Shown: positions 1 to 640 of the stretch, in pieces
How positions within the stretch are numbered: the stretch's first letter is position 1
How the letters are laid out: every line of letters begins with the position of its first letter
DNA from: a phage
Sequence record: AF056257.1
Strand: one strand, 5' to 3'
DNA length: 640 bases
The notes under the pieces: generated by a model
What the model was told of the DNA's origin: nothing
The model's database searches: none
The model's input: the letters and a program-made list of their open reading frames with translations, nothing else
Made by a program: the position numbers and the translations under genes

Positions 1-160
1 CNTTGGCCATTTTTTACGGNAATAANCAGGGAATNTTGTTATNTTCNATTGNNGNATGATTCNGNCCNAGTATTNGCCTNTTAAAGTGGGTATGGTGTGT
101 AGTGGTTTAGCAGTTTATCTGGTTTAAATTCAAATATATGTTTCTGTGGTANGNTTAAAN
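1..160. other. Low-quality read start: 17 ambiguous base calls (N) at 2, 20, 26, 35, 43, 47, 52, 53, 55, 63, 65, 68, 75, 80, 152, 154, 160
   Basis: Direct observation of N characters. The clustering at the 5' end is typical of a single-pass read, so frame and feature calls here are unreliable. Confidence 0.9.
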
Positions 161-214
161 CCAACATTTCTAGGTAAAGTAGATCCAAACCAGTATAACC
201 TGGTTTCCATCTTG
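56..214 (+). CDS. Possible N-terminal part of the same gene in frame 2: candidate ATG 56-58, hydrophobic anchor-like stretch (K)VGMVCSGLAVYLV (83-124), in-frame TAA 125-127, then IQIYVSVV?L?PTFLGKVDPNQYNLVSIL (128-214)
   Basis: Frame 2 translation shows a 13-residue hydrophobic run followed about 15 residues later by an 'F-L-G-K-V' segment, the layout expected for the N-terminal membrane anchor and 'R-F-G-K' start of an SPFH domain. The region contains many N calls and an in-frame stop, so the exact start and frame are unreliable. Confidence 0.2.
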
Positions 215-275
215 TAAACCATTTGATTTTTCGATACTTTTAGTAACAAAAGATATTGCTGTAAAATTAGATAAA
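183..275 (+). CDS. Probable upstream continuation of the same SPFH protein, read in frame 3 (IQTSITWFPSCKPFDFSILLVTKDIAVKLDK); joins the frame-2 core only if about one base is missing near the A-run at 272-276
   Basis: Frame 3 is open from 183 (after TAG 180-182) to TGA 318-320. 'CKPFDFS' lies at the distance from the SQD block expected for the conserved 'W-K-P-x-F-I-D' segment of HflK / 'QKPIIFD' of prohibitin (about 25-27 residues). Codon usage is the same as the core. The frame relationship to the core is inferred, not observed. Confidence 0.4.
187..206 (+). repeat. Perfect 7-bp inverted repeat AAACCAG / CTGGTTT with a 6-nt loop (TATAAC), potential hairpin inside the coding region
   Basis: Direct reading: 187-193 aaaccag is the reverse complement of 200-206 ctggttt. 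It coincides with the place where the upstream frame-2 ORF (ends TAA 215-217) and the frame-3 ORF (from 183) overlap. Confidence 0.45.
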
Positions 276-640
276 TTCAGGTTCCTAGCCAGGATAAGTT
301 TAAATCCACTGTTGACCTGACTGTTATGTTACAATTTGATGGTTCTAAGGCACCGATTAACCGTATTAACGCAGGCACCCAGGATCAAGCATTAGACAAA
401 TATGTAACTGAAAAATTACTGTCCACTATTCGTGAGTTCGGTAAGTCTGTTCCCTAAAGCACAAGATTTGTTTGATGCTAAAATCCAGGCTCAATTACAA
501 ACCGCAATTCAACAGGAAGTTGAAGAGTATGCACGCCCTTATGGTTACACAGTTAAGCAAGTGTTCCTTCAGGATATTACATTGCCACCGGTAATTATGG
601 AACAGGTACAGAATACCAAAGTTCGTGAAGAACAAGTTAA
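275..640 (+). CDS. SPFH/band-7 domain protein (stomatin/prohibitin/HflK-HflC superfamily), internal fragment, 3' partial; frame changes from frame 2 (275-454) to frame 3 (459-640) near 452-458
   Basis: Seen in sequence: frame 2 is open 275-454 (ends TAA 455-457) and frame 3 is open 408-640, with the two translations given in the summary. From recalled family knowledge: SQDKFKSTVDLTVMLQF matches the spacing of the stomatin 'TKD..V.VD..V.YRV' block, LLSTIREFG resembles the 'LR.V.G' motif, and GYTVKQVFLQDITLPP resembles stomatin 'GIKVERVEIKDVKLP'. Spacing between blocks fits HflK/stomatin. Codon usage is consistent across both segments. Confidence 0.75.
449..458 (+). other. Frame discontinuity (+1) within the SPFH gene at GTT-CCC-TAA-A; removing one base from the C-run/T gives ...REFGKSVPKAQDLFDAK...
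   Basis: Frame 2 terminates at TAA 455-457 while frame 3 is open 408-640 and carries the conserved C-terminal SPFH block. Both frames are open across 408-454, so the shift lies in this interval; the homopolymer CCC (452-454) is the likeliest site. Confidence 0.6.

Follow-up and report, generated by a model that had tools for sequence, protein, structure and literature searches.

Phage sequence record AF056257.1 raises the question of whether a gene which appears to be split across several reading frames is truly broken in the phage that carries it, or whether it appears so because of the way in which the DNA was read. The whole stretch of DNA which we analysed, hereafter the window, is 640 nt long, has a G+C content of 36.6% and contains 17 N calls, all of which lie at or before position 160. 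An earlier note, made from the letters of the window alone, had described one membrane-anchored SPFH/band-7 gene from position 56 to 640 in which no single frame is open throughout, and had offered either several errors in the read or a decaying pseudogene as the cause. The lack of an open frame was confirmed, as no forward frame is open across the window and frame 2 stops at 125, 215, 272 and 455. After comparison with related phages, we hold it to be very probable that the gene is intact and that the frame splitting is a base-calling artefact of a low-quality read end, with the disruption at 452 probably also being a miscall.

We compared the window to phage, plasmid and bacterial sequences by blastn. 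In the phage collection it matched 629 phage records, nearly all of which were T5-like (Demerecviridae), with hosts including Salmonella, Escherichia, Klebsiella and their relatives. The top matches span window positions 72-640 at ~91-92% identity, and the whole window is ~91% identical to the tRNA-gene region of T5-like phages (Tequintavirus, Demerecviridae). Positions 277-640 are more similar still, with 97.3% nucleotide identity to Salmonella phage Shivani, Escherichia phage H8 and vB_SLGBLB0002. There was no match to the window in the plasmid collection or in complete E. coli genomes, and a prophage or plasmid copy as the source of the window was therefore ruled out. Judged by its sequence, the window is part of a known gene for an SPFH/band-7 membrane protein, T5.080 or ORF trn1.1 of phage BF23; annotations of this gene already exist in many of the T5-like phage genomes that matched. 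Its membership of the T5.080/ORF trn1.1 orthologue group of Tequintavirus and relatives is supported by both synteny and near-identity: window positions 1-9 align to the 3' end of a tRNA gene, positions 10-36 align to a conserved spacer, and positions 277-640 agree with the group at 97.3% of nucleotides and 100% of amino acids.

The window was aligned to DT57C, Shivani and H8 with N treated as a wildcard, which gave the following layout.

1-9, plus strand: 3' end of tRNA-Arg(UCU), comprising the acceptor stem and encoded CCA; it reads CNTTGGCCA vs CCTCGGCCA in the reference (alignment to DT57C and H8).
10-36, plus strand: intergenic spacer with the ribosome-binding site (RBS); the reference RBS AAGGAAAT is read as AGGGAAT at ~28-34.
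37-640, plus strand: SPFH/band-7 gene, first ~212 of 315 codons; only TG of the start codon remains, at 37-38, its A having been dropped, and the window ends before the gene does.
56-58, plus strand: spurious ATG; it results from the loss of a C in GAACTGA of the reference (codons 9-11), at CDS position 28.
87-139, plus strand: region encoding the hydrophobic anchor, by coordinate mapping from the reference; unreadable, with ~12 changes of frame.
162-640, plus strand: SPFH/Band_7 domain (Pfam PF01145), aa 52-225 of the reference; the window ends at aa ~212.
1-276, no strand: low-quality read end, with 17 N, 40 single-base deletions, 1 insertion and 10 substitutions absent from references.
452-454, plus strand: CCC vs CC in all references; as a result TAA at 455-457 is in frame, and the true reading passes from frame 2 into frame 3.

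The beginning of the gene differs from that which had been proposed, as alignment to the references places the start at ~37-38 and the ATG at 56-58, from which the gene had been thought to run, was created by the dropped C. The number of frame changes had also been underestimated. Breaks had been noticed in four places (near 125-127, 199-215, 272-276 and 452-458), whereas tracing the true codon phase through the window gave 27 switches of frame, which occur every 2-16 nt up to position 162. After this point the blocks become longer: frame 2 at 163-186, frame 1 at 187-218 (encoding PGFHLV, a block which had been missed), frame 3 at 219-225, frame 2 at 226-244, frame 3 at 246-275, frame 2 at 276-451 and frame 3 at 453-640. 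A tblastn search of the window with the intact H8 protein also placed consecutive segments in different frames, as the earlier reading of the locus implied, with matches in frame 2 at 164-454 (E=7e-47) and in frame 3 at 204-638 (E=7e-43). The peptides FLGKV, SQDKF...VDLTVMLQF, LLSTIREFG and ARPYGYTVKQVFLQDITLPP, which had been picked out from these frames, are genuine parts of the protein; however, "CKPFDF" is a garbled form of VNPFASFDTF. The frame-2 peptide at 56-124 which had been taken for the anchor does overlie the true anchor region (~87-139), but its translation is not valid.

The assignment to a membrane-anchored SPFH/band-7 gene stands, both by the matches to the T5-like references and by domain searches. 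A composite of the frame-2 and frame-3 segments of the window scored 47.3 bits against Pfam Band_7 PF01145 (E=3e-12), for which the gathering threshold is 23.6 bits, and the intact reference protein scored 64.2 bits (E=2e-17, aa 52-225). The reference protein also matched PHROG 200 (E=6e-87), and an NCBIfam search with it gave no match. The nearest solved structure by sequence was E. coli QmcA (8z5g; E=1.8e-6, aa 42-266), and prohibitin-2 was also among the nearest solved structures (E=7.5e-5). As is characteristic of SPFH proteins, the reference protein has an N-terminal hydrophobic membrane anchor, at aa ~23-43 (WGIGAVVGLAGLILAFNSYTI). Its only strongly hydrophobic 19-residue windows (Kyte-Doolittle >1.6) start at aa 20-27, and the maximum of 1.79 is found at aa 25-43 of the H8 protein. 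The C-terminus of the reference (aa 212-315), which lies outside the window, is charged and rich in Ala, Glu, Lys and Gln. We also considered the label of bacterial lipoprotein, which is given to this protein in RefSeq and in PHROG 200, and rejected it: a lipobox needs an invariant cysteine, the 315-aa reference protein contains zero cysteines, and therefore no lipobox is possible. The protein looks like a transmembrane-anchored SPFH protein rather than a lipoprotein, and the "lipoprotein" label in RefSeq and PHROGs is unsupported by the cysteine-free sequence.

In the reference phages the gene is a 948-nt ORF of 315 aa which is found in the tRNA-gene region directly downstream of tRNA-Arg(UCU). 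It occupies positions 2729-3676 in both the H8 locus (L004) and the DT57C locus (L005), corresponding to window positions 37-640. The tRNA is annotated in the references, and at the H8 locus ARAGORN predicts tRNA-Arg(tct) at 2620-2694, ending 34 nt ahead of the ATG. The labels given to the gene vary and include "SPFH domain / band 7 family protein", "putative membrane protein (T5.080)", "ORF trn 1.1", "lipoprotein" and "hypothetical protein". An intact ORF of 314-316 codons was present in all of the T5-like loci which we translated (32/32); these loci yielded 29 distinct sequences, which were used as the comparison set. More widely, the protein found a match in 726 phage records, and in 680 of the 726 at least 80% of the protein was covered. 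In the BF23 record, promoter P16-17, stable RNA X and tRNA-Arg precede the gene, and the annotation shows no terminator between them.

Several further features of this region were observed in the reference genomes. A "stable RNA X of unknown function" of 640-780 nt is annotated immediately upstream of tRNA-Arg in BF23 (L002, 71-854) and DT57C (L005, 1984-2619), and the annotated promoter which precedes it also precedes the SPFH gene. In BF23 (L002), a DNA single-chain interruption (a T5-type nick) is found at 1956, 45 nt past the SPFH stop codon, and is followed by a bidirectional terminator at 1982-2025 and then by convergent genes. In the T5-like E. coli phage NG_S8 (LC788711.1, 28690-28815) only the last ~42 codons of the SPFH gene are left; this is a natural deletion, from which it follows that some T5-like phages do without the gene. 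Genomes of the Shivani, SHSML-45 and HildyBeyeler type carry an extra ORF of 66 codons between tRNA-Arg and the SPFH gene (Shivani gp160, L003 2741-2941), for which a Pfam scan gave no match. The upstream layout of the window is of the T5/BF23/H8/DT57C type, without the 66-codon ORF. As its coding part is nonetheless closest to Shivani and H8, this hints that the source genome may be a mosaic.

We examined how the differences between the window and the references are distributed along the window. Measured against H8, its nearest reference, the window shows 40 single-base deletions, 2 insertions, 17 Ns and 27 substitutions. Among these 27 substitutions, 17 are alleles found in at least one other phage of the 29 distinct sequences and 10 are found in none. 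Counting as private events all Ns, indels and substitutions which are absent from all references, their density falls along the window as follows.

Window positions 1-100: 44 private events per 100 nt.
Window positions 101-200: 19 private events per 100 nt.
Window positions 201-276: 6.6 private events per 100 nt.
Window positions 277-640: 0.3 private events per 100 nt.

Thus 68 of the 69 private events, including 41 of the 42 indels (binomial p=2.6e-14), lie at or before position 276, and all of the substitutions absent from references (10/10) lie at or before position 228. Up to 276 there are 40 deletions vs 1 insertion, with homopolymer runs accounting for 25 of the 40 deletions. Damage is as dense in the tRNA acceptor end, spacer and RBS, where the references hardly vary, as it is in the coding sequence. 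The reference spacer is 34 nt long and almost invariant in genomes of the T5/BF23/H8/DT57C type, with an RBS annotated at the equivalent site in BF23, while the spacer at window positions 10-36 has 7 dropped bases, 3 Ns and 2 private substitutions. The remainder of the window is very different in character. At positions 277-640, every substitution relative to the nearest reference (9/9) is an allele of other phages, falls at a third codon position and is synonymous, the chance of all nine falling at third codon positions being (1/3)^9 = 5e-5; once one C is removed, 120/120 residues equal those of the references. Read from these codon positions, the clean part of the gene is under purifying selection, not relaxed constraint.

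The pattern of polymorphism also indicates where the window stands among its relatives. The exact 186-nt haplotype pattern of the window was absent from viral contigs, and when each clean half (either side of 452) was compared to the phage collection by megablast the best matches were 97.7% and 97.9%, with no exact haplotype. The source phage is therefore a slightly new haplotype, of which the protein over the readable part is the same as that of the references.

These distributions bear directly on the proposal that the whole gene is a decaying pseudogene in the source genome and that its frame breaks are real mutations. Having no single open frame and many stops is indeed the look of a pseudogene when no relatives are compared. 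However, the lesions of a pseudogene would be real, independent of position and accompanied by relaxed constraint, and what we found is damage which falls monotonically from 44 to 0.3 per 100 nt, occurs together with N calls, which represent ambiguity of the base caller and not mutations, and crosses the gene boundary into the RBS, the spacer and the tRNA acceptor end. Deletions outnumber insertions by 40:1 and are clustered in the first 275 nt, and the clean part, with its nine synonymous shared polymorphisms and 120 identical residues, shows no sign of decay. We reject the pseudogene, to which we give almost no credence, because the damage tracks position in the read, the clean part differs only by synonymous, shared alleles, and the gene is intact elsewhere, in all 32 T5-like loci. 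The same positional pattern lends strong support to the other cause which had been put forward, namely that the read contains indel and substitution errors.

The CCC at 452-454 must be weighed apart from this, as it is the sole indel and the sole private event in the 364 nt of positions 277-640. We consider that the extra C at 452 most probably reflects a miscalled homopolymer: CC within a single continuous open frame is found in all 29 distinct T5-like sequences, H8 and SHSML-45 carry the CC allele between identical flanks, and the 31-nt CCC allele with its flanks was absent from viral contigs and metagenome contigs. No finished genome with the exact haplotype of the window was found. We see only a slim chance that the extra C is real. 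It would then mean either the fresh loss of a conserved accessory SPFH gene or a +1 frameshift site at GTT CCC TAA which restores exactly the wild-type protein. For the former, the 5' damage would be sequencing error and the C would be a real mutation truncating the SPFH protein after ~residue 150 (at GTT CCC TAA), making this a recently inactivated accessory gene. The C is located where 364 nt hold no other private difference, and NG_S8, with only its last ~42 codons, demonstrates that T5-like phages do lose the gene. Nevertheless, we regard the truncation as very unlikely. A change from CC to CCC is a homopolymer length change, the commonest type of miscall, in a read which demonstrably miscalls homopolymers, and the allele is missing from the viral and metagenome contigs. 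The codons downstream are 100% identical in protein, with differences which are only synonymous, so that the gene could only have been inactivated very recently. Single-pass reads commonly contain errors at such a rate, one in 364 nt (0.3%).

For the latter, CCC-TAA at 452-457 would be a programmed +1 ribosomal frameshift: with the stop codon occupying the A site, tRNA-Pro would move from CCC onto CCU, and translation of two frames would yield the full-length protein. In enterobacteria tRNA-Pro is known to be prone to shifting where CCC precedes a stop codon, and a +1 shift at GTT CCC T AAA GCA gives exactly ...S V P K A Q..., as in the reference protein. Conservation is the hallmark of such sites, but neither the slippery site nor the two-frame structure is conserved among homologues: the site is present in 0/29 distinct T5-like sequences, all of which have CC and one continuous frame, and the CCC allele with its flanks was found in neither viral nor metagenome contigs. 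The read is, moreover, error-prone at homopolymers. A programmed frameshift at this position was thus rejected, its probability being negligible in our judgement.

Under the preferred reading of an intact gene in an error-laden read, the window would be a single-pass Sanger-type read from a T5-like phage (Tequintavirus, Demerecviridae) with a haplotype which is absent from the collections searched. Such a read would run from the last 9 nt of tRNA-Arg(UCU), through the 34-nt spacer with its RBS, into the first two thirds of the 315-codon SPFH/band-7 gene. The apparent frameshifts would be base-calling errors, chiefly dropped bases in short homopolymers and Ns, at one end of the read. A read start seldom has a poor stretch as long as this one (~275 nt), and the steady error decay over this length would better suit the fading 3' tail of an opposite-strand Sanger read. 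The chief value of the analysis is accordingly one of quality control: the fragmentation of this conserved SPFH/band-7 gene very probably carries no biological meaning, and to label it a pseudogene, or to read protein from its first 276 nt, would be mistaken.

It had further been suggested that an NfeD-like gene might be found next to the SPFH gene, as is often the case for SPFH proteins. This lead proved negative. A Pfam scan of eight neighbour proteins from DT57C, BF23 and Shivani found no NfeD (PF01957) at E<=0.01; the matches were instead to a SleB-type cell-wall hydrolase, DUF7616, Toprim and, weakly, a YqeY-like domain. With no PF01957 neighbour, and with the BF23 gene followed by the nick site and bidirectional terminator, an SPFH-NfeD operon pair was rejected and the NfeD lead is negative for the T5-like family.

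Concerning the role of the protein, we found annotation-level mentions only of the T5 SPFH gene in the literature and no experiment on the phage protein, and a recent Tequintavirus paper states that the functions of the band-7 protein are unknown (PMC12752171). By analogy with QmcA, HflK/C and prohibitins, the phage SPFH protein may insert into the host inner membrane. There its helical C-terminal part could mediate oligomerisation into a ring or cage during infection, and such an assembly might organise or shield membrane proteins while infection proceeds. The same SPFH protein was also observed, at 61-80% amino acid identity along almost its whole length, in unrelated phages, namely RB16/RB43/KP15-type and Aeromonas T4-like myophages (168-180 kb) and ~90-kb Salmonella phages. 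This distribution suggests that one accessory SPFH gene has spread horizontally between phage families, and the presence of a related gene at 60-80% protein identity in unrelated large phages is a mildly useful side point of the analysis.

Among known systems, E. coli QmcA, prohibitins and HflK-HflC are membrane-anchored SPFH proteins which build large rings or cages, and the phage reference protein shares their architecture: the hydrophobic anchor is N-terminal, the Band_7 domain follows it, and the C-terminal region is charged and helical. Its similarity to QmcA and prohibitins is only distant, and in contrast to the QmcA/prohibitin/HflK-HflC group the phage SPFH gene is phage-borne and has no adjacent partner of NfeD or FtsH type. 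The SPFH genes of RB16/RB43/KP15-type and Aeromonas T4-like phages belong to the same family, with 61-80% amino acid identity over nearly the full length. Genes of this type (RB43ORF139c, 44RRORF098c and Aeh1ORF064c) were listed as Pfam SPFH/Band 7 among novel ORFs by Nolan et al. 2006 (PMC1524935). These T4-like genes come from a different phage family and genome context, whereas the window belongs to the T5-like group, with >90% nucleotide identity. Within that group its counterparts are T5.080, BF23 ORF trn1.1, DT57C_000058 and Shivani gp161 (PHROG 200). The window as read differs from these by 42 indels and 17 Ns which are present in no reference of the group, and by being a new haplotype, which matches none of them exactly and differs from every reference by at least 9 synonymous changes. 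It is like them in its site directly after tRNA-Arg(UCU), in its spacer and in its RBS, and over the clean 364 nt it agrees with them at 97.3% of nucleotides and, after the removal of one C, at 120 of 120 amino acids.
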